Assembly: GCA_913061435.1 (NCBI GenBank)
Contig: CAJXUK010000015.1
Location: 324-64,323 of the forward strand
Direction: 5' to 3'
Length of the DNA: 64,000 bases
Origin: an uncultured Thalassolituus sp.
GTDB lineage: Bacteria; Pseudomonadota; Gammaproteobacteria; Pseudomonadales; Oceanobacteraceae
In this document: in pieces, positions 3,831-63,383 of the stretch
Layout: each line of letters starts with the position of its first letter
Position numbering within the stretch: the first letter of the stretch is position 1
Made by a program: the position numbers and the translations under genes
The notes under the pieces: generated by a model
Database searches by the model: none
Seen by the model: only the letters and a program-made list of their open reading frames with translations
What the model was told of the DNA's origin: nothing

Positions 3831-4355
3831 TTAGCCCAAAAACCGACTATTAGCAGCCACGTCTTTAATCACAACAGCATTCGCGCCAATAATGGCATTC
3901 TCGCCAATCGTCACTCCTGGTAAGATTTTTACTCCACCGCCAATCCATACGCCATCGCCAATAACCACTGGCTTGGCGATACAGCCCCCCGCTCTTCGCG
4001 CCATGGCATCACGGGGATGATCAACGGTATAGATGTGCACAGCTGGCCCTAGCATAACGTCATTACCAATAATGATGTCGGCACTGTCTAAAAAGACGCA
4101 GTTAAAATTAGCGTAGAAGTTGTCGCCTAAGGAGATTTGACCGCCGTAGTCGCATTGAAATCCAGGTTCAATGACTGCTGTGGATAACTTATTGAATAAA
4201 CGACTGATGTGCTTGAAATTGCCTTTGCTCGGGTGAGCATTGTATTTACCGCAAGCAAGGCGAGCTTTTTCGCGCAATAGACGCAGTTCAAGATCAAGGC
4301 TATTAAAAGGTTGGCCTGAGCGCATTTTATCGAGCTCAGGAATATTGTTATCCAT
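3831..4355 (-). CDS. Sugar (maltose/galactoside-type) O-acetyltransferase, hexapeptide-repeat family
   Basis: IEPGFQCDYG, NFYANFNCVFLD, AKPVVIGDGVWIGGGVKILPGVTIG left-handed beta-helix. Confidence 0.88.
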   Translation of the reverse strand: MDNNIPELDKMRSGQPFNSLDLELRLLREKARLACGKYNAHPSKGNFKHISRLFNKLSTAVIEPGFQCDYGGQISLGDNFYANFNCVFLDSADIIIGNDVMLGPAVHIYTVDHPRDAMARRAGGCIAKPVVIGDGVWIGGGVKILPGVTIGENAIIGANAVVIKDVAANSRFLG

Positions 4356-10385: not shown

Positions 10386-12113
10386 TTAGTTATCTGCGTT
10401 CTCAATTTGCTTAGTGATGACATACTGCTGAGAGATCGACAGTAAGTTGTTCACTACCCAGTAAAGCACAAGGCCCGATGGGAAGAACAAGAAGAATACC
10501 GTGAAAATAACAGGCATCAACTTCATAACACGAGCTTGCACAGGATCTGGAGGCGTCGGGTTCAACTGCATCTGAACAAACATACTCGCACCCATTAATA
10601 AAGGTAATACGAAGTAAGGATCAATTGCCGACAAATCGTCAATCCATAAGAAAAACGGGGCTTGGCGCAACTCAACACTTTCTGCAAGTACCCAATACAA
10701 GGCAATAAATACTGGCATCTGTACAAGAATAGGTAAGCAACCACCAAGAGGATTGATCTTCTCTTTCTTATACAAGGCCATCATTTCTTGGCCTAGCTTT
10801 TCTTTATTATCACCGTACTTTTCACGAATCGATGCAAGCTTAGGAGCAACTTTTCGCATATTCGCCATGGAGCGATAGCTGGTTGCAGACAATTTGAAGA
10901 AGGCTAGCTTAATCAGAACCGTTAACAAAATGATCGCTACACCCCAGTTACCTACACCAGCGCCTAGGTCAATTTCTACCATGCCTAAAAAGTTAATATA
11001 GCCAGACTCAATGAAATTCATCACCGCAAACAAGGGTTGAGCAATCCACCATAACCAACCGTAATCTACGGTTAAGTCTAGATTTTCAGCAACATCGGCT
11101 AAAACATATTGTGATTTAGGGCCAACATATAATTTAGCACCCACCGAACCTGTGCCACCGGCCTCAACCTGTAGAGGTGTTTTGCCATCATGGAAACCAA
11201 CTATATATTCACCCTGTTTATTAGGTTTGGCATAAACCGAATGAGTGGTGTCTGGGTCAGCAACCCAAGCCGATACGAAGTAGTGTTGCAACATAGCAAC
11301 CCAACCACCGTCAACAGATTCTGAGAAACGTTTGTCATCAATATCATCGAAGCTGATTTTTTCATACTTAGATAGATTGGTGGTAATTGCAGGCCCTAAA
11401 TACGCCTGCATTCCCATAGAGCTGCCTTGTTGTGGATCTTCGCTGCGGTCACGTTTTAACTGAGCAAAGAAAACACCACGCCATTGGTTATCTGTACCGT
11501 TAGCAATTTGATAATTAACATCGATTAAGTAGTTGTTACGCTGAAAAGTGAATACTTTTTTAACTTCAACGCCATCTAACTGAGTGAATAACTCTACAAC
11601 TAAGGAATCAGCAGATTCATCTAATTGATAATTAACCTGAGAAGTAGAATAAGGCTGCGTTTTTTCCCATTGCTTGCCTTTAGCATCTAACAAACCACTT
11701 TGTGCAACATAGACTCGACGGGCATTGTTTTCCATTAAGACAAATGGAATGTCTTTATTACTGATGTCTGCAGGATAAGCCGGCAAAGACACTTCAACAA
11801 TTTCACCACCAAATGGATTAATTGTTACGTTTAAAACGTCGGTCTTCACTTGTATTAATTGAGTACTAACAGCAGCTTTAACTTCAGGTTCAGCAGCAGG
11901 TATGACATTGGGAATGTCGCTATCATTAGCTGAAGTACTGTCTGCAGTTATGCTGTCATTCGCCATGGGTGAATCACCCATTTCAATTGCAGTATTTTGT
12001 GCAATAGGCGCGTTAGCAGCCGTGTCTTGACCGTAATCGTCATTCCACGCAAGAATTAAAAAATAAGTTGAAATAGCCAGGCCAAATATTATGGCAAAAC
12101 GGCGGATATCCAT
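10386..12113 (-). CDS. yidC: Membrane protein insertase YidC
   Basis: GNWGVAIILLT, NPLGGCLPILVQMPVF, GLVLYWVVNN. Confidence 0.98.
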   Translation of the reverse strand: MDIRRFAIIFGLAISTYFLILAWNDDYGQDTAANAPIAQNTAIEMGDSPMANDSITADSTSANDSDIPNVIPAAEPEVKAAVSTQLIQVKTDVLNVTINPFGGEIVEVSLPAYPADISNKDIPFVLMENNARRVYVAQSGLLDAKGKQWEKTQPYSTSQVNYQLDESADSLVVELFTQLDGVEVKKVFTFQRNNYLIDVNYQIANGTDNQWRGVFFAQLKRDRSEDPQQGSSMGMQAYLGPAITTNLSKYEKISFDDIDDKRFSESVDGGWVAMLQHYFVSAWVADPDTTHSVYAKPNKQGEYIVGFHDGKTPLQVEAGGTGSVGAKLYVGPKSQYVLADVAENLDLTVDYGWLWWIAQPLFAVMNFIESGYINFLGMVEIDLGAGVGNWGVAIILLTVLIKLAFFKLSATSYRSMANMRKVAPKLASIREKYGDNKEKLGQEMMALYKKEKINPLGGCLPILVQMPVFIALYWVLAESVELRQAPFFLWIDDLSAIDPYFVLPLLMGASMFVQMQLNPTPPDPVQARVMKLMPVIFTVFFLFFPSGLVLYWVVNNLLSISQQYVITKQIENADN

Positions 12114-41622: not shown

Positions 41623-43398
41623 TTAGCCAATCTGAGACTGGTTACGGCCTAACTCTTTTGCCTTGTACAAGGCTTTATCCGCCCGAGCAAAAACTTCTTC
41701 CGGTGATTCATCCTTAGAAAATTGGCTAATGCCAAACGAAATAGTGATTTGCACTGGCTCTTTTTTAAAGTTGAATGGGCTGAGTTCGATGGTTTTACGC
41801 AATTTTTCCGCTGCAATTAGGGCATCTTCTGCACTGGTTCCAGGCATTAAGATCACAAACTCTTCACCGCCAAAACGGGCAATAAAGTCGCTTACGCGTA
41901 ATTTCTTTTGTAGAGAGCGAGCGATAATGGTGAGTACTTTGTCACCGGCAAGATGACCGTAAGAATCATTAATCCGCTTAAAAAGATCTACATCGCATAC
42001 TATTAACGATAATTTGCCGCCGTAACGATCAAGGCGTTGAACTTCTTGCTCTAAACGCTGCTGGTAAGACTCACGATTGGGAAGCCCTGTTAACGGATCG
42101 TGCATGGCTTTTTTACGCTGCTCTTCGAGTGCAACTTGAGCAACTTGAGCTAGATTTTCCATTTCGTCTAGCTTGCTTTGCATTTGTTCTAGTTGTTTTG
42201 TTAGCTCTGTTTCGCGCTCATTTTCTGCCGAGCTATAACTTTGCATCGCTTGTAAGATTAATCCAAGATGTTCGCTAATGCTGTTACTAAGGGCACCCAG
42301 ACTGTTTTTGTTACTGACTTCAGAGCGGATGTCATTAACTTTTTTCTCAAGAATGCCAGCAAATTCATCCCGTGCGTCGCTGCGAGCAAGCTGTCCTTTT
42401 GAGGCGCTATTAACAATATCTTGAATGGTCTCTAAGCGATTATCCAAGCCCTGGAGAAATTGTTCAAACTCGGCTTGGCCGTTGCCGACTGCATCAATAA
42501 CAAGATTGGCGACTTCTTCTAGTGTGGGTACTAAATCATACCAATCAAGTTTAGAGGCTAGTTTTACTTTTAAAGCATTTAAACGATCATGGTAACTGGC
42601 AGGAATAACCAACTGAGCCAACAAGCGGTTGATCATAGCGCTGACATCTTTTTCTATCGCAGAATAAGAGATCCTTTGCTGTTCACCTTCGGTATCTGTT
42701 ACCTCAATAGACACAGAGCCACTGTTTGCAGCTTTTGTGTCAGTACTTGTAACGCCAGCACTGATTTTTTTAAATTCGGTGTCAGAGTCGTTATTTAAAT
42801 CCAGCGAGTCTTCAGTTTCGACAGCAGTTGGTTGGCTAGGCGTTTGTGGTGGACGCTGAAATAAACGACTAAAAAAACCAACGGCTGGGCCAGCACTTTC
42901 ATCAATACTGTCAGTTTGCAAAGGCAATTCAGCAATGAGTTGAGTCCATGATTTTAGCTGCTTGCTGTAACCAGCCCATTGCTCTAATTCATTTTTAGAT
43001 TGATTAAGCACTTTTTTGATATGCTGTTTTTGTGCAAAAGGTAGAGGCAGCTGTAATAAATTTTTTGCAGCTTTTTGCATAGTTTGCAGTATTTCTTCCG
43101 ACTGCATTTGCCACTTGTGCTCAAAGCGGTTCATTTCTGCTTGTAAGGCTTTTACATTCTTTTCTAAGTCAGGATTACTGCTATCGGGTTTAATCGCTTC
43201 ACGCAGGGTTGCAAGCGGTTTATCTATACTATTGGTTTGGCCTTCTGCCAGCAACGCAACAACCATCAAAGCACGACGCATTTGATCCTGCTTACTGTCA
43301 TTACTTTTGATAAGTTGCTCGTGACGCTCGATCAGGTCGAGATACTTATTGCGCCATCTACTAGCATTGTTGTGTGAAAATTCGCCTTCTTGCGACAT
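41623..43398 (-). CDS. Diguanylate cyclase (coiled-coil plus GGDEF)
   Basis: DPLTGLPNR, DVDLFKRINDSYGHLAGD, ARFGGEEF. Confidence 0.93.
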   Translation of the reverse strand: MSQEGEFSHNNASRWRNKYLDLIERHEQLIKSNDSKQDQMRRALMVVALLAEGQTNSIDKPLATLREAIKPDSSNPDLEKNVKALQAEMNRFEHKWQMQSEEILQTMQKAAKNLLQLPLPFAQKQHIKKVLNQSKNELEQWAGYSKQLKSWTQLIAELPLQTDSIDESAGPAVGFFSRLFQRPPQTPSQPTAVETEDSLDLNNDSDTEFKKISAGVTSTDTKAANSGSVSIEVTDTEGEQQRISYSAIEKDVSAMINRLLAQLVIPASYHDRLNALKVKLASKLDWYDLVPTLEEVANLVIDAVGNGQAEFEQFLQGLDNRLETIQDIVNSASKGQLARSDARDEFAGILEKKVNDIRSEVSNKNSLGALSNSISEHLGLILQAMQSYSSAENERETELTKQLEQMQSKLDEMENLAQVAQVALEEQRKKAMHDPLTGLPNRESYQQRLEQEVQRLDRYGGKLSLIVCDVDLFKRINDSYGHLAGDKVLTIIARSLQKKLRVSDFIARFGGEEFVILMPGTSAEDALIAAEKLRKTIELSPFNFKKEPVQITISFGISQFSKDESPEEVFARADKALYKAKELGRNQSQIG

Positions 43399-43495
43399 AG
43401 TCCCTTTACCAACTTTAGTGTTATACCACTCAGTATAGAAAACATGAGCTTACTGATATTATTTATTATTAAATAATTAAACAACAATAAAAACA

Positions 43496-43522
43496 AAAAT
43501 GGCAGCTGTTAAAGCTGCCATT
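43496..43522 (-). terminator. Intrinsic terminator after dsbA
   Basis: AATGGCAGC/GCTGCCATT 9-bp stem with U-tract on the minus strand. Confidence 0.65.
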
Positions 43523-43550
43523 CAAACAATTCTTACTGATAAAAGAACGA

Positions 43551-44195
43551 TTAGTTGCGTTCTTTTTCAATTAAGTAATCAACTACTTTGAACATATTTC
43601 CTTGGCCACCCGCAGAAGAGGCATCTACTAAATATTTGCCATTAACAACCAGTGCCGGAACGCCACTTACACGGAAAGCGCGTATACGCTTATCACCCTG
43701 CTGCATGCGACTCTTAACCGTAAATGAGCTGTAGGCTTTGTCAAAATCTTCTTCACTCACACCATAAGCCGCAAAAAACTCTCGTTGCTCTGATTTGCGC
43801 TGTAAGCGTTTACCATTAATATGAATAGCCTTAAAAATATCACCGTGAGATTGTTCAGTGATACCTAATACTTCACCAATGTAATACAGCTGAGCATGGA
43901 TAACCCAAGATTTGCCAAACATCGCAGGAACGCGAGTAAATTGTACATCGCTTGGAAGTTTAGACGTCCAAGATTCAACGTGTTTTTCTAAAGTAAAGCA
44001 GTGGCCACAGCCATACCAAAATAATTCTTCTACATGAATTTTACCGTTGGCAGGAACTGCCTGAGGTTGCTCAAGTACTTTATAAGTTTTACTCATATCG
44101 GTAAGTGCGGCCTCTTGATGGTTGTGACCATCTGCAGCAAGGCTGTTGAAACTGGCTAAAACAATGGCGGCACTGGTAAGGATACGTCCTAACAT
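43551..44195 (-). CDS. dsbA: Thiol:disulfide oxidoreductase DsbA
   Basis: Signal peptide, EELFWYGCGHC, GVPALVVNGKY. Confidence 0.92.
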   Translation of the reverse strand: MLGRILTSAAIVLASFNSLAADGHNHQEAALTDMSKTYKVLEQPQAVPANGKIHVEELFWYGCGHCFTLEKHVESWTSKLPSDVQFTRVPAMFGKSWVIHAQLYYIGEVLGITEQSHGDIFKAIHINGKRLQRKSEQREFFAAYGVSEEDFDKAYSSFTVKSRMQQGDKRIRAFRVSGVPALVVNGKYLVDASSAGGQGNMFKVVDYLIEKERN

Positions 44196-44341
44196 CTTAA
44201 ACTCCGAAACAAGGGTTTTGATAATTAATAATATTTAACGGATAAGTTCAATTGCGTACTTATTACTTTTATTGACAAGGATTGTGGCACAAAGGTTCAG
44301 CCTTAGGTAGGCGTTAACCACAAAAGAGAGGAATAAAAACC

Positions 44342-44367
44342 AAAAAAAGCGGCCTAAGCCGCTTTTT
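44342..44367 (-). terminator. Intrinsic (possibly bidirectional) terminator after cytochrome c4
   Basis: AAAAAGCGGC-CTAA-GCCGCTTTTT perfect hairpin. Confidence 0.8.
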
Positions 44368-44382
44368 CGTAAACTAAATCAA

Positions 44383-44985
44383 TTACTTCAAACCACGTAT
44401 GTAGCTAGAAACAGCTTTGATTTCATCCATATGCATACGTGAAGCGATATCACGCATTACATTGTTCTCATCGTTATGACGATCGCCGTTGTAAAAATCG
44501 ATTAGTTGCTTTTCGGTATAAGCTTCATGCTGACCAGCAAGGCTTGGGAAGCCGGCTGCTTCAACACCTTTACCATTTGGGCTGTGACAAGCGATGCAAG
44601 CAGGAACGCCTGTTGCTTCGTTACCGCCTAAAAAGATACGTTTACCGAGTTCAACCAATTCTGGATCAACAGAACCGCCCGTTGCTGGCTTTTGCTCTGC
44701 ATAATAAGCAGCAAGGTCAGCAATGTCGGTCTCAGTTAAACCCATAACAAAACCAATCATTTCCGGAACCTGACGGTCACCATTTTTAATTTCGGTGATT
44801 TGCTTCACTAAATAACGTTCACCTTGACCAGCAATATTAGGGAAGTTAGGGGCTAAGCTATTACCGTCAGCGCCGTGGCAGGCACCACAAGTGGCCGCTT
44901 TGGTTTTTCCTGCGACCGGATCGCCTGCTTGGGTAGCAGAGATAAGGCCAACAGAAATGATTAAGCTAATCAGTAGTTTTTTCAT
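44383..44985 (-). CDS. Di-heme cytochrome c4
   Basis: Two heme motifs CGACH and CIACH, signal peptide. Confidence 0.93.
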   Translation of the reverse strand: MKKLLISLIISVGLISATQAGDPVAGKTKAATCGACHGADGNSLAPNFPNIAGQGERYLVKQITEIKNGDRQVPEMIGFVMGLTETDIADLAAYYAEQKPATGGSVDPELVELGKRIFLGGNEATGVPACIACHSPNGKGVEAAGFPSLAGQHEAYTEKQLIDFYNGDRHNDENNVMRDIASRMHMDEIKAVSSYIRGLK

Positions 44986-45443: not shown

Positions 45444-46106
45444 ATGTTAAATGCACAAACATTGATTTATACCAAGACTCGCTTCATGCAAAGCGCCGCA
45501 AAGTTCACTCAGTGCCCTCAATGGGACGGTGTAGAGATTGCCTTTGCCGGCCGTTCTAACGCTGGTAAATCGAGTGCGCTTAACGCCCTTACCGAACAGA
45601 CAAAACTCGCTCGAACCAGTAAAACCCCGGGTCGAACGCAGTTAATTAACTTTTTCCAAGTTGATGATACTCCTTATCGACTGGTGGATTTACCGGGTTA
45701 TGGCTTCGCAAAAGTACCCAAAGCGATCAAAATCGAGTGGCAAAAGCAGTTAGGCGCGTATTTAGACAAGCGAGATTGTCTTCGTGGCCTGGTTTTAGTG
45801 ATGGATATTCGTCATCCCATGACCGAATTTGACCAAACCATGGTCGACTGGGCACACGAATCCAATATGCCTTTGCATATTTTGTTAACCAAAGCCGACA
45901 AACTAAAGCGTGGCCCCGCCTCTGCCACCATGTTGCAGGTACGTAAAGCCGTTGCCAATATGGGTGATTTAGCGACGGTACAGATGTTTTCATCTTTAAA
46001 AGGTGATGGCGTAAAAGAATTACGCAAGCATTTGACCAAGTGGTTTATGGATAATACTGAGTTTCATGACGAAGATGATGTTGAAGGCAAAAAAGAGCCC
46101 GATTGA
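45444..46106 (+). CDS. engB: Ribosome biogenesis GTPase EngB (YihA/YsxC)
   Basis: [27 protein letters not shown]. Confidence 0.96.
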
Positions 46107-46250
46107 TAATTGGGGAAATCAATCGGGCTAGACTTCGGGTATTGGGGTATACCCGAAGGAAACACAACGTTATTACTAACGTTAAACTAACTAAAAATGT
46201 CTAAAGAAGCGTTTACTGTTTCTATAACTTAACAATAGACGCTTCTTATG
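46089..46250 (-). ncRNA. Candidate structured sRNA or polA 3'-UTR RNA at the Spot 42/ErsA position
   Basis: Four hairpins (46204-46247, 46166-46183, 46133-46158, 46096-46129), the last followed by U6 on the minus strand. The last two loops both contain CCCCAA. Confidence 0.55.
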
Positions 46251-46306
46251 AATATGCCACTTTAGTCTACATGCAAAATACCTTCATACTAAAATCTACG
46301 TAAAAA

Positions 46307-49117
46307 CTAGTGCGCTTCGCCCCAGTTGTTACCAAAGCCCACATCGACAATCAGCGGCACATCAATTTTAACGGCATTTTCCATAATCTCTTTTAGCTTG
46401 GCCGAGAAGGCTTCTAGCTGCTCGGTTTTCACTTCTAATACCAGTTCATCGTGTACTTGCATGATCATTTGCGCATCAAACTCTTGTGTTGCTAACCAGT
46501 CTGCAACCTTAATCATGGCTTTTTTGATGATGTCAGCCGCGGTGCCCTGCATCGGAGCGTTAATCGCGGTGCGTTCGGCGTGTTGGCGGCGCTGGGCACT
46601 TTTGGCTTTAATATCAGGCAGATACAAACGACGGCCAAAGATGGTTTCAACGTAACCGGCATCTGCCGCGTCTGCGCGGGTATTGTCCATGTAGGATTTC
46701 ACCCCAGGATAGCGTTCAAAATACAAATCAACGTATTCTTGCGCTTGGTTTCGGCCAACCCCGAGTTGCTTGGCGAGGCCAAAGGCTGACATACCGTAAA
46801 TCAAGCCGAAGTTAATTGCCTTTGCGCTGCGGCGCATATTCGGTTCGACGTTATCAATGGTCACCCCAAATACTTCGGCGGCCGTTGCTGTATGCACATC
46901 AACGCCGTTGGCAAAAGCGGTTAATAACCCTTTATCTTTAGACAAGTGCGCCATGATGCGTAGTTCGATTTGGCTATAATCGGCGGCCACCATGGTATAG
47001 CCTTGTGGCGCGATAAAGGCATTACGAATGCGACGGCCTTCTTCGCTTTTCACTGGAATGTTTTGTAAATTCGGGTCAGTCGACGATAAGCGCCCTGTTG
47101 CTGCAGTGGCTTGATGATACGAAGTATGCAAACGGCCTGTGCGCTGGCAAATCATTAGCGGTAGCTTGTCGGTGTAGGTCGATTTTAGCTTGCTCAAACT
47201 GCGGTTTTCTAGAATAAGTTTAGGCAGCTCGTAGTCTTCAGCTAATTGAACCAACACTTCTTCGGCAGTCGATGGTGCTCCCTTGGGGGTTTTCTTCACT
47301 ACAGGCAGCTCTAGTTTTTCGAACAAGATTTCAGCCAGCTGCTTAGGAGAACCTAGGTTAAAGACCTGTCCTGCAACATCGTGGGCTTGTTGCTCTAACT
47401 CGGCCAAGCGCGCGCTAAGTTGGCCGCTTTGCTCGTGCAAAATATCAGGGTCTATTAATGCGCCATTGGCTTCGATTTTGGTAAGCACTTGCACTAATGG
47501 CAGCTCGATATCTTCAAAAACTTTTTTGAGGTCGGCTTTGTCACTTTCATTTAGCTGCGCCCAAAGCACTTGATGCAAACGCAAGGTGATGTCGGCATCT
47601 TCAGCGGCGTATGGCCCTGCGATGGCAATTTCGATATTGTCGAAGGTGACTTGTTTAGCGCCCTTGCCTGCTATTTCTTCAAACTTAGTGGTTTTAGTAC
47701 CTAAATAATACGACGCTAGGCTGTCCATATCGTGACGCGTTGCGACCGAGTTAAGAATGTAAGATTCCAGCATGGTATCGAACTGAATGCCTTTCAGCTC
47801 AATGCCGTAATTGGCAAGAACGTGAGCATCGTATTTTAAATGCTGGCCGACTTTTTTATGCTCTGCGCTTTCTAAAATAGGCTTAAACTGGGCTAAAACA
47901 GTATCGCGGTTAAGCTGAGTGGGAGCATCTTCTAAAAGCGTATCGGGGCCAATGTGGGCCAGCGGTACATAAGCCGCAGTTCCCGCTTCGATGGCGAAAG
48001 AGAAACCAACAATTTCGGCTTCCATGTAATTTAGTGACGTTGTTTCGGTATCAAAGGCGAATAATTCGGCTTTTTCTAATTTATCCAGCCATTCATCAAG
48101 CTGAGCTTGATCAAAAATAATTTGGTAATCGGTTTCGATTACATCGACTGGGAACGCAGCAAAGGAACCCGCTTCGCTTGCATCATCTTTAGATGCGTTT
48201 TTAGCATTGTTTTTAGCAAGACTAGCTGGTTTAGCAGTTGCTGTTTTGTCTTCTAAGCTTCCGCCCAGTTCAGCTACCCAGCCTTTAAATTCAAATTCGC
48301 TAAACGACGTTAACAATGCGTCTTTATCGGCAGGCTGGCTTTTAATTTCGGTAATATCTTGTTCAAGCTCAACATCGCACTTAATGGTGGCGAGTTCGTA
48401 AGAAAGTGGCAAAAATTCAATTGCTGCACGTAAATTCTCACCAATCTTTCCTTTAATTGAGTCGGCGTTATCGATCACGCCTTGTAAGGTTTCATGGGCA
48501 TCTAACCATTTAACCGCAGTTTTGGGGCCACACTTTTCAACCCCAGGAATGTTATCAACCTTATCGCCCATCAAAGACAGATAATCGATGATTTGATCCG
48601 GGCGCACACCAAACTTTTCAACAACGCCATCCACATCCATAAAAGTGTCGGTCATGGTGTTGATTAAGCTAATGTGCTCGTTAACCAATTGCGCCATGTC
48701 TTTATCACCGGTCGATATAACCACATCGCGTTTGGCGCTGGTGGCTTGGGCGGCTAACGTACCAATCACATCATCAGCTTCTACGTTATCAATCACCAGC
48801 AAGGGTAAACCCATGGCTTTAATAATGTCGTGAATGGGCTGAATCTGTACCCGTAGTTCGTCTGGCATTGAGGGGCGATTAGCTTTGTATTCTGGGTACA
48901 TGTCGTTGCGGAAGGTTTTACCCTTAGCATCAAAAATTACGATAATTTGCGACTCTGGGTAATCTTTTTGCAGCTTACGCATCATGTTGATTACGCCACG
49001 AATCGCTCCCGTTGGGTGGCCAGCGGAGTTCGTGAGCGGAGGCATGGCGTGGAATGCGCGGAATAAATACGATGAACCATCGACGAGTATAGTTGGGGCT
49101 AATGCAAAATCAGACAT
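46307..49117 (-). CDS. polA: DNA polymerase I
   Basis: LVDGSSYLFRAFHA, FDTETTS, LSSTDPNLQNIP, ADYSQIELR, QVHDELV. Confidence 0.99.
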   Translation of the reverse strand: MSDFALAPTILVDGSSYLFRAFHAMPPLTNSAGHPTGAIRGVINMMRKLQKDYPESQIIVIFDAKGKTFRNDMYPEYKANRPSMPDELRVQIQPIHDIIKAMGLPLLVIDNVEADDVIGTLAAQATSAKRDVVISTGDKDMAQLVNEHISLINTMTDTFMDVDGVVEKFGVRPDQIIDYLSLMGDKVDNIPGVEKCGPKTAVKWLDAHETLQGVIDNADSIKGKIGENLRAAIEFLPLSYELATIKCDVELEQDITEIKSQPADKDALLTSFSEFEFKGWVAELGGSLEDKTATAKPASLAKNNAKNASKDDASEAGSFAAFPVDVIETDYQIIFDQAQLDEWLDKLEKAELFAFDTETTSLNYMEAEIVGFSFAIEAGTAAYVPLAHIGPDTLLEDAPTQLNRDTVLAQFKPILESAEHKKVGQHLKYDAHVLANYGIELKGIQFDTMLESYILNSVATRHDMDSLASYYLGTKTTKFEEIAGKGAKQVTFDNIEIAIAGPYAAEDADITLRLHQVLWAQLNESDKADLKKVFEDIELPLVQVLTKIEANGALIDPDILHEQSGQLSARLAELEQQAHDVAGQVFNLGSPKQLAEILFEKLELPVVKKTPKGAPSTAEEVLVQLAEDYELPKLILENRSLSKLKSTYTDKLPLMICQRTGRLHTSYHQATAATGRLSSTDPNLQNIPVKSEEGRRIRNAFIAPQGYTMVAADYSQIELRIMAHLSKDKGLLTAFANGVDVHTATAAEVFGVTIDNVEPNMRRSAKAINFGLIYGMSAFGLAKQLGVGRNQAQEYVDLYFERYPGVKSYMDNTRADAADAGYVETIFGRRLYLPDIKAKSAQRRQHAERTAINAPMQGTAADIIKKAMIKVADWLATQEFDAQMIMQVHDELVLEVKTEQLEAFSAKLKEIMENAVKIDVPLIVDVGFGNNWGEAH

Positions 49118-49275: not shown

Positions 49276-49575
49276 ATGATGCGCACCTTACTTGTGACTT
49301 TCGTCTGTGCTTTTGCACTGATCGGTTCCCCTGTATTTACCATGAGTGTTGCTGCTCAAACTAGCGGAGAAGAAGTGGTTATCCGTAATGACGGTGATAA
49401 AACATTTTATGAATACCGCCGTGGTGGAGAGATTGTCGAGATCAAGGTAGTGCCTAAATATGGCAAACCCTACTATTTAAAGCCAAGTGATGTGCAAAAT
49501 GCTGAAAATGGCCAGTATGTTCAGTCTGATACCCCCGAGATAGCAGTGCCAAGCTGGGTTATTTTTCGCTGGTAA
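49276..49575 (+). CDS. DUF2782-like small exported protein
   Basis: Signal peptide, EYRRGG....IKV.PK.GKPYYL, C-terminal VPSWVIFRW. Located between polA and thrB. Confidence 0.75.
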   Translation: MMRTLLVTFVCAFALIGSPVFTMSVAAQTSGEEVVIRNDGDKTFYEYRRGGEIVEIKVVPKYGKPYYLKPSDVQNAENGQYVQSDTPEIAVPSWVIFRW

Positions 49576-49680
49576 TTTTTATTAAGACGTTTTGGCTCTT
49601 GGCCTGCCAATGTTCATTTAATGTGAGTGCTCTCTTAACCAGTACTCACCCTTCTTTTGCTCAACCATTAAGTTAATTTC

Positions 49681-50706
49681 ATGTCTGTTTATACCGATCT
49701 TAGTGCCAACGATATTTCTATCTATTTAAAGCAATTTTCATTGGGTGAATATCATAGTCATCAAGGCATCAGTGCGGGGGTCGAGAACACCAACTTTTTT
49801 GTCTTTATAAAATCCGCAGATCAGTCGTTGCAAAAATATGTGTTAACGATTTTTGAACATCATAATACAAATGAAGTAGAAGGCTTTATTCGTATTGGTC
49901 GTCATTTAGCAGAGCAAAAAATTCCTGTGCCCGCCCCTATTGCGGATACGGCGGGTCGATATTTACACGCGTTAAAAAACAAGCCAGCTATTTTATGTGT
50001 GTGCCTACCGGGTTCACACCCTGTTGATATCTGTGCGGATCATTGTTGGCAAATTGGCCAAGCCTTGGCTCAGTTTCATTTGGCTGGGGAAGGTTTATCT
50101 GGATTAGATGAAAACAATCGTGGTTTGCAGTGGTGGCCAGAAATAGGCCGTGAGCTTATTCAATATAGTCTTGCCAGTATGGCTAATGGCAGTGATCCGT
50201 TATTAACTCAAGAACAGCAAGAAATTTTGGTCGATGAAGTTGAATTCCAAGAATCGAATACCGAGCTTTGGTATAGCTTGCCGCGGGGTTTGATTCATGG
50301 TGATTTATTCCACGACAATGTGTTATTCGACATTACCGCAGCACAGGCTCCTAAGCTGGGGGCAATTTTAGATATTTATAATGCCTGCCAAGATGTTTGG
50401 TTGTTTGATTTGGCTATTGTTGCCAACGATTGGTGTGCTAACGCGGTAGGTGACTGGCAGCCCGAACGTTTACCAGCGTTAATGGCGGGTTATCAGTCGG
50501 TGCGTGAATTAACCAAATCAGAACAGCAGTCTTGGGGCATGTGTTTACGCGCTGCGGCGCTGCGTTTTTGGTTAAGTCGGCTCACCACGCAACAGCATCA
50601 GGCTGATGTTATTGCGCAAGATCCCATGGCAGCTTTGGTAACGACAATTAAAGACCCTATGGAGTACTTTTTAAAGTTAGTTCGTCACCGCGATACCCAG
50701 TATTGA
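49681..50706 (+). CDS. thrB: Homoserine kinase type II (phosphotransferase family)
   Basis: MSVYT, GISAGVENTNF, IHGDLFHDN, ALRFWLSRL. Confidence 0.9.
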   Translation: MSVYTDLSANDISIYLKQFSLGEYHSHQGISAGVENTNFFVFIKSADQSLQKYVLTIFEHHNTNEVEGFIRIGRHLAEQKIPVPAPIADTAGRYLHALKNKPAILCVCLPGSHPVDICADHCWQIGQALAQFHLAGEGLSGLDENNRGLQWWPEIGRELIQYSLASMANGSDPLLTQEQQEILVDEVEFQESNTELWYSLPRGLIHGDLFHDNVLFDITAAQAPKLGAILDIYNACQDVWLFDLAIVANDWCANAVGDWQPERLPALMAGYQSVRELTKSEQQSWGMCLRAAALRFWLSRLTTQQHQADVIAQDPMAALVTTIKDPMEYFLKLVRHRDTQY

Positions 50707-57744: not shown

Positions 57745-58458
57745 TTATGGTTTTTCTTGATTGTTAATGATGTGCACAATCGACAGCATCTTTTTCGGCG
57801 TAAACGGCGGTTTAATAAAACCATAGTAATTACCATTTGGGTCTAAAATAGCAATGTTGGCGCTGTGGTCCATCAAATAGCCTAAGTCTGGATCAACCTC
57901 ACCCTCACTGTTTAAACGATCTACTTTGGCATACACGGCATTTAACTGTGCAGTAAAACTGTGTAATGACGTTAAGTTACCGCTCAGTGCGGTAAAATCT
58001 GCTTCAAAATAATCCATGTAAGTTTTCAGCTGTTCTGGGGTATCACGCTCAATATCCACACTGACAAATACGATCTGATTTTTTGCTTTAAGTTCTGCAG
58101 AGAGTTGTACCCACATTTGTTGCATGACCGACAAGGTGGTTGGGCAAATATCAGGGCAAAAAGTGTACCCAAAAAAGAGAAAGGACCATTTGCCTAAGTT
58201 GTCTGCTTTGCCAACGGTTTCACCCTCTTCATTAATAAAAGGAACATCCGAAACAGGCAGAGGTTGCGCAAACTTAAAAGCATCCAGATCACTTAGTTGA
58301 GAAGACAGAGACGTTGATTCGTCATTGTTTGAGCTTAATACATACCAACCAGCAAACAAGGCCAGCCCAAGTATTAAACACATAACCAATACAACAGGCA
58401 TAAAGCCCTGTTTACTTTTTTGCGAGGTATTTGCTGGCGTTGACATACGAATTTCCAA
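57745..58458 (-). CDS. SCO1/SenC copper chaperone
   Basis: FFGYTFCPDICP, VSVDIERD, YLMDHSA. Confidence 0.92.
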   Translation of the reverse strand: MEIRMSTPANTSQKSKQGFMPVVLVMCLILGLALFAGWYVLSSNNDESTSLSSQLSDLDAFKFAQPLPVSDVPFINEEGETVGKADNLGKWSFLFFGYTFCPDICPTTLSVMQQMWVQLSAELKAKNQIVFVSVDIERDTPEQLKTYMDYFEADFTALSGNLTSLHSFTAQLNAVYAKVDRLNSEGEVDPDLGYLMDHSANIAILDPNGNYYGFIKPPFTPKKMLSIVHIINNQEKP

Positions 58459-62831: not shown

Positions 62832-63383
62832 ATGCTTAAAAACACCAACAGCGGTTATGGCTGGGTAGCAATTTCACTTCATTGGTTAATGGCAATAGGT
62901 ATCTTTGGCACCTTTGGTTTGGGTTTATACATGGTAGAGCTAACCTATTACGATACTTGGTATAGAGGATCACTTGATTTGCACAAAAGCATTGGTTTAA
63001 CGCTGATGTTTGTTTGGATACTAAGAATTATCTGGCGCTGGTCCAATACCAGCCCACAGATAACCGGTAATGCGCTAGAGAAAAAAGCCGCGCATACGGT
63101 ACATTTATTACTCTACGTGGTCATGCTGGCGTTAATGATAACAGGGTATTTGATTTCAACAGCTGATGGACGGGGAATTGCAGTATTTGGGTTATTCGAA
63201 ATACCTGCTCTGTCGATTAGTTTTGAAAACCAAGAAGATATTGCGGGTGAGATTCACTGGCTACTTGCTTGGGGATTGATCTTAATGGTTGGCTTACATG
63301 CAATGGCCGCGATTAAACATCACGTTATAAATAAAGATGATACTTTATTGAAAATGATTCGACCTAAAACTGATTTAAAATAA
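62832..63383 (+). CDS. Cytochrome b561 (YceJ-like)
   Basis: YGWVAISLHW, HKSIG, HWLLAW, HAMAAIKHH heme ligands. Lies before yceI. Confidence 0.9.
   Translation: MLKNTNSGYGWVAISLHWLMAIGIFGTFGLGLYMVELTYYDTWYRGSLDLHKSIGLTLMFVWILRIIWRWSNTSPQITGNALEKKAAHTVHLLLYVVMLALMITGYLISTADGRGIAVFGLFEIPALSISFENQEDIAGEIHWLLAWGLILMVGLHAMAAIKHHVINKDDTLLKMIRPKTDLK

Follow-up and report, generated by a model that had tools for sequence, protein, structure and literature searches.

A putative small RNA gene with twin C-rich loops in the polA–engB spacer of an Oleispira genome, a probable diverged relative of ErsA

The stretch analyzed here is a 64-kb section of contig CAJXUK010000015.1 (hereafter the window, meaning this whole stretch), in which engB (45444–46106, plus strand, confirmed by Pfam; stop codon at 46104–46106) and polA (46307–49117, minus strand) converge on each other with a 200-nucleotide (nt) spacer between them. 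The RNA described here lies on the minus strand of that spacer. A first-pass annotation, made from the letters alone, had proposed a candidate small RNA (sRNA) gene at what is the ErsA/Spot 42 locus of other bacteria, and this proposal held up: the element is a conserved, structured sRNA gene with covarying stems, equipped with a conserved −10 box and a terminator of its own. On balance, we consider it probable, with some room for doubt, that this is an independently transcribed, trans-acting sRNA gene of ~137 nt that runs from 46225 to 46089 on the minus strand and corresponds, in Oleispira, to the ErsA-like sRNAs of the polA–engB spacer across the wider Pseudomonas/Oceanospirillales group. 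The engB product is 97–98% identical to the engB products of several Oleispira metagenome-assembled genomes (MAGs), and the window genome itself belongs to Oleispira (placed by NCBI in the Oceanospirillaceae).

The minus strand of the spacer folds into four hairpins, and these, both CCCCAA loops and the C-U6 tail all lie exactly where the first-pass annotation had placed them. Hairpin 1 (HP1, 46247–46204) comprises 16 pairs and one mismatch (−16.5 kcal/mol). The 5′ region of the RNA (46184–46225) holds a diverged counterpart of the stem-loop 1 (SL1) of relatives together with the unpaired, U-rich linker UAGACAUUUUUAGUUAGUUU. It is followed by SL2 (HP2; AACGUUA-GUAA-UAACGUU, 46183–46166, 7 bp, −5.0 kcal/mol) and by a second U-rich linker, GUGUUUC (46159–46165), immediately 5′ of SL3. 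The latter (HP3, 46158–46133) is a perfect 10-bp hairpin (−14.1 kcal/mol) with the loop ACCCCA at 46148–46143 and CCCCAA at 46147–46142, while SL4 (HP4, 46129–46096) is a perfect 12-bp intrinsic-terminator hairpin (−18.4 kcal/mol) whose loop UUCCCCAAUU (46117–46108) carries CCCCAA at 46115–46110. A C and six U residues (46095–46089) complete the terminator, and this T-run is invariant in our alignments. The spacer (222 nt) folds at −69.9 kcal/mol compared with −39.6 ± 4.4 kcal/mol in 200 shuffles, none of which was as stable (z = −6.9). Given that the two CCCCAA motifs, 32 nt apart, are each looped out on a perfect hairpin, and that TTGGGG/CCCCAA occurs 29 times in the 64 kb (both strands) against 24.8 expected, the twin loops are not an effect of base composition.

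A promoter and terminator scan reported no minus-strand site in the spacer, overlooking HP4 because its loop is longer than the scanner's limit. Coding potential was rejected, as the RNA has no AUG and its loop lengths differ by 1–2 nt between species; the only open reading frame (ORF) within it is a TTG-initiated frame of 40 codons that continues through the terminator. For homology searches, we used two covariance models, R1 (Oleispira sequences only) and R2 (Oleispira plus the loci L012, L073, and L027, with no Pseudomonas sequence), which match the window at 46088–46226 with 119.8 and 122.7 bits, respectively. R1 found no second copy in the window, its next best match (15.3 bits, E about 1, at 11027–11143, minus strand) being probably due to chance.

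An extended −10 box, TCTATTGTTAA, is located at 46239–46229 (minus strand), with the core TATTGT at 46237–46232 and an invariant C at 46238. A weak −35-like hexamer, GTGGCA (46255–46260, minus strand), lies 17 nt upstream and is loosely conserved in relatives (GTGGAA, ATGGCG, ATAACA). The invariant C followed by TATAGT, TATAAT, or TATATT is seen in all 35 distinct homologues, ~60–110 nt before SL3, with variable flanks on both sides. The consensus of the relatives, TCTATAGTTAA, agrees at 10 of 11 positions with the extended −10 consensus of sigma-S from E. coli, TCTATACTTAA (PMC3367168), and the window box agrees at 9 of 11. Placed by this box, transcription would start ~7 nt after TATTGT, near 46225 (± 3), giving a predicted primary transcript of ~137 nt (46225–46089) that ends in the U6 tract. 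The first-pass annotation had instead offered TG-N-CATATT at 46259–46251 as a weak promoter element; this motif is indeed present, but as a −10 box it is misplaced by ~20 nt and sits at the −35 position of the better-supported promoter. Sigma-54 (TGGCAT at 46259–46254, without the −12 GC), sigma-32, and sigma-28 promoters were each rejected by eye. We did note that Thalassolituus-type loci (e.g., L084, L099, L109, L112, and L120) carry the motifs AAGAAAATACAAC and CCTGCAG ~50–60 nt upstream of the −10 box, a putative regulator binding site that was not seen in the Oleispira type.

HP1, which the first-pass annotation had counted as a 17-bp hairpin at the 5′ end of the RNA, has to be set apart from it. 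Its 5′ arm consists of the promoter spacer and the −10 box, it also covers the first ~20 nt of the RNA, and no equivalent long hairpin exists in other Oleispira. Because HP1 overlaps the invariant −10 box and is specific to the window, it is probably not part of the primary sRNA; it could form in read-through RNA from polA or, on the plus strand, in the 3′ untranslated region (UTR) of engB.

The promoter looks sigma-S/sigma-70-like, unlike the sigma-E/AlgU promoter of ErsA. The sigma-E pattern GAACTT-N15-17-TCNNA is absent from the window spacer, its only match in the window being at 58069–58095. A sigma-E/AlgU-type promoter (GAACTT-N15/16-GTCTNA), with a T-run ~105–130 nt downstream, was found in 19–20 of 44 non-Oleispira spacers, including a true ErsA locus (L076), compared to none of eight Oleispira spacers. 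To judge by these motifs and by the sigma-22 dependence of ErsA (PMC13613067), the promoter type seems to have changed in the Oleispira/Thalassolituus branch.

The element lies directly downstream of polA in ten species-level Oleispira genomes. Conservation sets in abruptly at the GTCTATAGTTA box and runs to the terminator, while the sequences diverge upstream (alignment A1). The Oleispira copies share one layout, in which an unpaired stretch separates SL1 from SL2 and a U-rich linker separates SL2 from SL3, with SL4 last; the window copy is the most divergent of these (119.8 bits on R1 versus 133–172 bits for the others). In most Oleispira, SL1 takes the form GGUAAGCA...UGCUUCC, a register in which the window sequence pairs poorly, and SL2 is longer and covaries (4 pairs with double changes); the Thalassolituus-type relatives lack SL2. 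Within Oleispira, SL3 and SL4 hardly vary; the inner stem of SL3 is GUAU/AUAC in the window versus GAUU/AGAUC elsewhere, with the CCCCA loop kept closed on a longer helix.

A pattern search based on SL3 returned 40 metagenomic loci (36 distinct), and these, together with the earlier sequences, were aligned to R2 to give alignment A7 (35 distinct rows). Of the A7 cells, 94.9% are paired, and double changes are seen at 17 of 29 pairs. Covariation scored 0.392, compared to 0.087 or less with the partners slid by 1–3 columns, and none of 500 shuffles reached the observed values. Six of the seven SL1 pairs in this alignment have double changes, as do nine of the twelve stem pairs of SL4 across the 35 sequences. 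Among the relatives, then, SL1, SL2, and the terminator stem covary, and the loops are conserved. The outer stem of SL3 (CUUCGG/CCGAAG) is common to all Oleispira- and Thalassolituus-type copies, and the linker before it reads CCUUUUU, GCUUUUU, or UCUUUUU in nearly all 35 homologues. CCCC is kept in the SL4 loop of 34 of the 35 sequences, a loop that the search pattern did not include. No part of the element is better conserved than its two apical CCCC(C)AA loops, which persist on differing stems, and the weight that the first-pass annotation gave to the twin C-rich loops was thus well placed. A plain MAFFT alignment of the 3′ domain across genera was dropped, given that its stems were mis-registered; in its place stand a model-fitted alignment and one made by hand with N padding, the latter biased by the way it was built.

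At gathering thresholds, Rfam found no family anywhere in the window. In a permissive Rfam scan of 45900–46500, the best matches all cover the twin hairpins; of the two families named by the first-pass annotation, Pseudomon-1 (RF01719, the ErsA family) matched in full length at 46081–46178 with 31.5 bits (cut-off 50; E = 2.9e-4), while Spot 42 gave no match at E ≤ 10. The Aar model matched with 29.6 bits (cut-off 60). Both SL3 and SL4 align to the two hairpins of the Pseudomon-1 model, with no broken pairs in SL3. In the opposite direction, R2 recovered the ErsA of a Pseudomonadaceae MAG (L076; 72.6 bits with the Rfam ErsA model in the polA–engB spacer) at the exact coordinates given by Rfam, with 29.9 bits and E = 1.1e-3 over 355 kb. 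Further matches of R1 and R2 lie on the polA strand of the polA–engB spacer in L073, L027, L016, L024, L045, L014, and L015, and R1 matches the Thalassolituus locus L012 with 53.9 bits. The L073 site scores 33 bits with the model of sX13 (cut-off 50), the polA-linked sRNA of Xanthomonas, and 26.5 bits with the ErsA model.

Across related gammaproteobacteria, polA converges on engB in 52 of 80 engB-anchored loci, and related spacers follow a recurrent plan: a promoter, a small 5′ hairpin, a hairpin with a UCCCC(C)A loop, and a terminator whose loop usually contains CCCC as well. The UCCCC(C)A loop is carried by differing stems (CUUCGG, CUCCGG/CCGGAG, GUCUCU/AGAGAC, GCCUCC/GGAGGC, GUGUUAUU/AAUAGCAC, and ACCGGGC). 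When 17 such sequences were aligned by hand on their structure, both sides had changed in 19 of 25 pairs; as the alignment was fitted to the hairpins, this figure serves to illustrate the pattern and not to test it. Given that the matches are reciprocal, positional, and bridged by intermediates, the window RNA appears to be a diverged relative of ErsA and the Oleispira counterpart of the ErsA-like polA–engB sRNAs. The first-pass annotation had taken it for a lineage-specific sRNA, a view that gives way here: the RNA is a diverged member of an ErsA-like group that is widespread, occurring in the polA–engB spacer of many relatives. We also noted unannotated sRNA candidates with a sigma-E-type promoter in polA–engB spacers of the L013–L076 set (e.g., L033:3066–3398), from Halieaceae, Porticoccaceae/SAR92, Cellvibrionales, and others, with none at Rfam threshold among those scanned. 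In the Porticoccaceae form, the loop is CUCUCCCCCAAC, a second motif, GACUCUCCAAG, is present, and the terminator loop is not C-rich.

It could be argued that there is no separate sRNA here, and that the hairpins are the 3′ UTR or terminator of polA, possibly acting in both directions with the convergent engB. Consistent with this, most Oleispira show no obvious terminator belonging to polA itself, so read-through into the sRNA region is likely, HP4 overlaps the engB stop codon, and in metatranscriptomes where Oleispira is abundant everything is covered, with a single unitig spanning 46086–46420. Orientation argues otherwise. Oleispira-type copies lie downstream of polA on the same strand, whereas Thalassolituus-type copies lie on the engB strand, either inverted relative to polA or with no polA nearby; at L111, for example, polA is on the plus strand and both the sRNA and engB are on the minus strand, and at L012 the upstream neighbor of the sRNA is a divergent ORF of 618 codons. 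As the unit keeps its sequence, including the −10 box, after inversion or separation, it cannot be a mere polA 3′ UTR. The loops are also more conserved than termination would need, other Oleispira lack the overlap with engB, and the plus strand has no T-run after HP4 or HP3, so the structure is not a bidirectional terminator. In addition, coverage gaps separate polA from the twin hairpins in two metatranscriptome runs, namely X29 (an isolated contig at 46086–46200) and X30 (a gap at 46173–46274). We therefore regard the polA 3′ UTR explanation as improbable.

The metatranscriptome runs consist of assembled contigs without strand information. Good evidence for a discrete, comparatively abundant small transcript comes from a relative, the Thalassolituus-type homologue L088 (model match at 3998–4113), which forms an isolated contig in four independent metatranscriptomes: X36 (3999–4111, no differences, depth 10.8), X38 (3924–4110), X39 (3948–4106), and X40 (3970–4084). 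In all four, depth is zero over the 370 nt upstream of the homologue. One end of these contigs falls at the terminator U-tract and the other ends fall 11–17 nt short of the predicted start, as is expected from k-mer assembly at low depth. Directly downstream of this homologue (L088:3720–3990, minus strand), we observed an array of about seven tandem terminator-like units of 41–47 nt (GUCGUUUGCCCACUCUCAAGGGCGACUGGGUCUUUUUUUGCGUAUC), each resembling the 3′ half of the sRNA terminator with a different loop. Depth there is high, and copy number varies between strains, given that contigs skip exactly 41 nt (3899 to 3941). At the window locus, the assembly graph branches at the terminator (46086–46138) in runs X6, X7, X9, X10, and X26; a paralogue at the loose ends at 46138 was rejected, as these belong to a co-occurring Oleispira strain identical to L011 in that stretch.

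The overlap noted by the first-pass annotation between the terminator and the engB 3′ end is real in the window, where the engB stop codon (46104–46106) lies inside HP4/SL4 and the U-tract extends to 46089, but it is not conserved in other Oleispira. This bears on the idea that the RNA regulates engB in cis as an antisense RNA through the 17–18 nt shared by the two. The nine other Oleispira keep ~100–130 nt and a separate engB terminator between the sRNA and engB, and three of them (L005, L006, and L008) have a whole extra gene there, which indicates that the element travels with polA. Cis-antisense control is, accordingly, the least probable of the explanations considered, and, with that spacing kept elsewhere, the overlap in the window is a local accident that probably arose by deletion.

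The inserted gene in L005, L006, and L008 is a small lipoprotein-like ORF, and the Thalassolituus insert L012:3242–5098 encodes the secreted-looking 618-codon protein noted above; the polA–engB spacer is evidently a rearrangement hot spot. The neighboring genes of the window identified with Pfam, in flanking blocks at 41623–44985 and 49276–50706, are ordered GGDEF cyclase, DsbA, cytochrome c4, engB, the sRNA, polA, DUF2782, and a thrB-like kinase. This order appears similar to the ersA neighborhood of P. aeruginosa (PA5487–PA5495). The diguanylate cyclase gene thus stands close to an sRNA whose Pseudomonas relative responds to cyclic di-GMP (c-di-GMP).

With an independent sRNA gene as the probable reading, its most likely mode of action is modelled on sX13, whose repression was shown experimentally to depend on the C-motifs as well as on G-rich motifs close to start codons (PMC3771888). 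In line with the Shine-Dalgarno pairing raised by the first-pass annotation, the window RNA would use one or both of its C-rich loops to pair with G-rich (UUGGGG-like) sites at or near ribosome-binding sites, and this pairing would repress translation. Hfq could bind the U-rich tract before SL3 and the 3′ U6 tail, the tract might also be a seed, and the unpaired UAGUUAGUUU region may act as a second seed, as in domain II of ErsA. Within the window, a cytochrome b561 gene (62832–63383) has UUGUGGGGUA at −10, the Shine-Dalgarno position, and its computed duplex with the SL3 loop has −13.8 kcal/mol. We regard it as no more than a lead. A target search confined to the window says little.

Several points weigh against the picture of a trans-acting, ErsA-like sRNA with effector loops. 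Both Rfam-type matches are below family thresholds and the E-values from R1 and R2 are rough. The covariation alignments were fitted to the structure by model or by hand, the A7 sequences are related to each other, and the invariance of the SL3 stem in A7 is due in part to its inclusion in the search pattern. The −35 element is poor, and the choice of sigma factor is a guess that relies on an E. coli motif. GGGG occurs within −40 to +20 of the start in only 3 of 56 crudely called genes of the window, and published ErsA work puts the seed in the U-rich region between SL1 and SL2 rather than in the loops. Finally, the metatranscriptome contigs of the window organism itself are ambiguous: 3x contigs from X13 and X20 reach 46265–46271, upstream of the predicted start, with engB covered and polA not, and X31 covers polA and engB but not the sRNA. 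The X13 and X20 contigs may represent a plus-strand engB 3′ UTR ending after HP1. These contigs (46110–46271) end just past HP1, one of them with a fold-back copy of 46238–46260, and HP1 may mark the 3′ end of plus-strand engB transcripts in a genome that lacks the separate engB terminator of other Oleispira.

Following the published work, the RNA might instead function like canonical ErsA, with the unpaired U/G-rich region (46203–46184 and/or 46165–46159) as the effector acting with Hfq, and with the C-rich loops serving structure, stability, or termination only. The known ErsA targets algC, anr, mlaA, fleN, and oprD pair with nt ~19–79, mainly the unpaired region after SL1; the Rfam alignment matches ErsA GUUGUGUU to 46168–46161; the U-rich tract before SL3 recurs in nearly all homologues; and a related UAGGU/UAGUU motif recurs in the unpaired region. 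However, conservation is far lower in this region than in the loops, the window RNA has the SL2 hairpin and a 7-nt linker in place of the long ErsA domain II, and the UCCCC(C)A loops persist across lineages with completely different stems and 5′ halves. While an ErsA-like seed deserves consideration, we find it unlikely to be the whole of the mechanism.

A further proposal, close to the protein-binding alternative of the first-pass annotation, holds that the two C-loops serve as a bivalent binding site for a protein or for a small molecule rich in guanine, such as c-di-GMP, without mRNA pairing. Two similar loops on unrelated stems would suit bivalent recognition, and the GGDEF diguanylate cyclase gene is 3 kb away. 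In Pseudomonas, c-di-GMP was found to lift repression by ErsA in vivo and to disturb the ErsA/algC complex in vitro, direct binding being one possible model of the authors (PMC13613067). Against this, no binding site has been mapped on ErsA, no known c-di-GMP aptamer family matches in the Rfam scans of the window, the GGDEF neighbor may reflect simple synteny, and the sX13 precedent accounts for C-loops by RNA pairing. Pure ligand binding therefore seems very improbable to us, and an involvement of the C-loops in the interference of c-di-GMP with ErsA pairing is speculation.

Returning to the sRNA gene with pairing loops as the preferred reading, the window RNA would be a likely riboregulator of stress or stationary phase in Oleispira, an oil degrader adapted to cold. 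More broadly, C-rich-loop sRNAs occupy the polA–engB spacer in many marine gammaproteobacteria, most of them with a sigma-E-type promoter, and the locus is a natural example of an sRNA effector module that is kept while promoter type and orientation change. What is conserved over the longest distance is the loops, not the published ErsA seed, which provides a testable hypothesis for ErsA and suggests how the ErsA-like RNA family recognizes its targets. RF01719 could be extended accordingly, or a clan defined.

A wider and more tentative idea, which we hold to be possible but doubtful, is that the twin C-loops are the ancestral effector module of an old polA-linked sRNA superfamily. This would comprise ErsA, sX13, the unannotated Halieaceae and Porticoccaceae/SAR92 forms, and those of Oleispira and Thalassolituus, with the Oleispira/Thalassolituus branch rewired from a sigma-E to a sigma-S-like promoter and one sub-branch flipped in strand. 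If true, the ErsA loops would be an overlooked functional site, either a second targeting module or the site of c-di-GMP action. Studies of ErsA have treated it as a virulence and biofilm regulator specific to Pseudomonas, and those of sX13 as a regulator specific to Xanthomonadaceae; in the literature searched, we found no paper in which both are mentioned.

Among known systems, Spot 42 (spf, RF00021) of Enterobacteria and Vibrionaceae shares the position immediately downstream of polA on the same strand. Its model gave no match in the permissive scan, and the two RNAs differ in sequence and structure: Spot 42 has no C-rich loops, and the window RNA has no SpfP-like ORF. No CRP site was recognizable at the window locus, though no systematic search for one was made. 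The best sub-threshold Rfam score in the region belonged to RF02278, a toxic sRNA of Betaproteobacteria (33.4 bits at 46089–46164, cut-off 50). Like RsaE/RoxS, alpha-r7, and other C-rich-loop sRNAs, it has two C-loop hairpins of which the second is the terminator. The Burkholderia copies of RF02278, however, are multi-copy, and the listed neighbors of four copies are not polA (PMC4603805); the resemblance is most likely one of design and not of family membership.

The sX13 RNA of Xanthomonas (RF02232) is always found downstream of polA and exposes apical CCCC/CCCCC loops on stable stem-loops; the authors of that work raised the question of whether other bacteria, too, have sRNAs of this kind at polA (PMC3771888), a question that the present locus answers. 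The window RNA shares the location and the C-rich apical loops, with homology unproven, and the sX13 model gave no match at E ≤ 10 on 45900–46500. The two differ in layout, as sX13 has three C-loops and an unstructured 5′ end, whereas the window RNA carries CCCC in SL3 and SL4 but not in SL1 or SL2. Moreover, sX13 is Hfq-independent and restricted to Xanthomonadaceae.

The closest likeness is to ErsA, which is about 130 nt long, compared to about 137 nt for the window RNA. Both lie on the polA strand of the polA–engB spacer among similar types of flanking genes, and both end in a 3′ module of a C-rich-loop hairpin, a short linker, a CCCCA-loop terminator hairpin, and a U-tract; in P. aeruginosa, ersA has been located to this same spacer (PMC8575079). 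The genes under Hfq-dependent control by ErsA include algC, oprD, amrZ, anr, mlaA, and fleN. The differences include the score (31.5 bits versus the 50-bit gathering cut-off), the promoter (sigma-22/sigma-E, GAACTT-N16-TCTGA, in ErsA versus the TCTATTGTTAA box here), and the host, an Oceanospirillaceae member rather than a Pseudomonas. In addition, SL2 and its 7-nt linker stand in place of the long, unpaired, U-rich domain II of ErsA, where 13 of the 116 positions of the Pseudomon-1 model are deleted in the window alignment. With regard to RF01719, then, the window RNA departs from the family in score, promoter type, and seed domain, and agrees with it in locus, 3′ architecture, and reciprocal profile match. 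It is a new, diverged form beside the known ErsA and not an invention of its own lineage.

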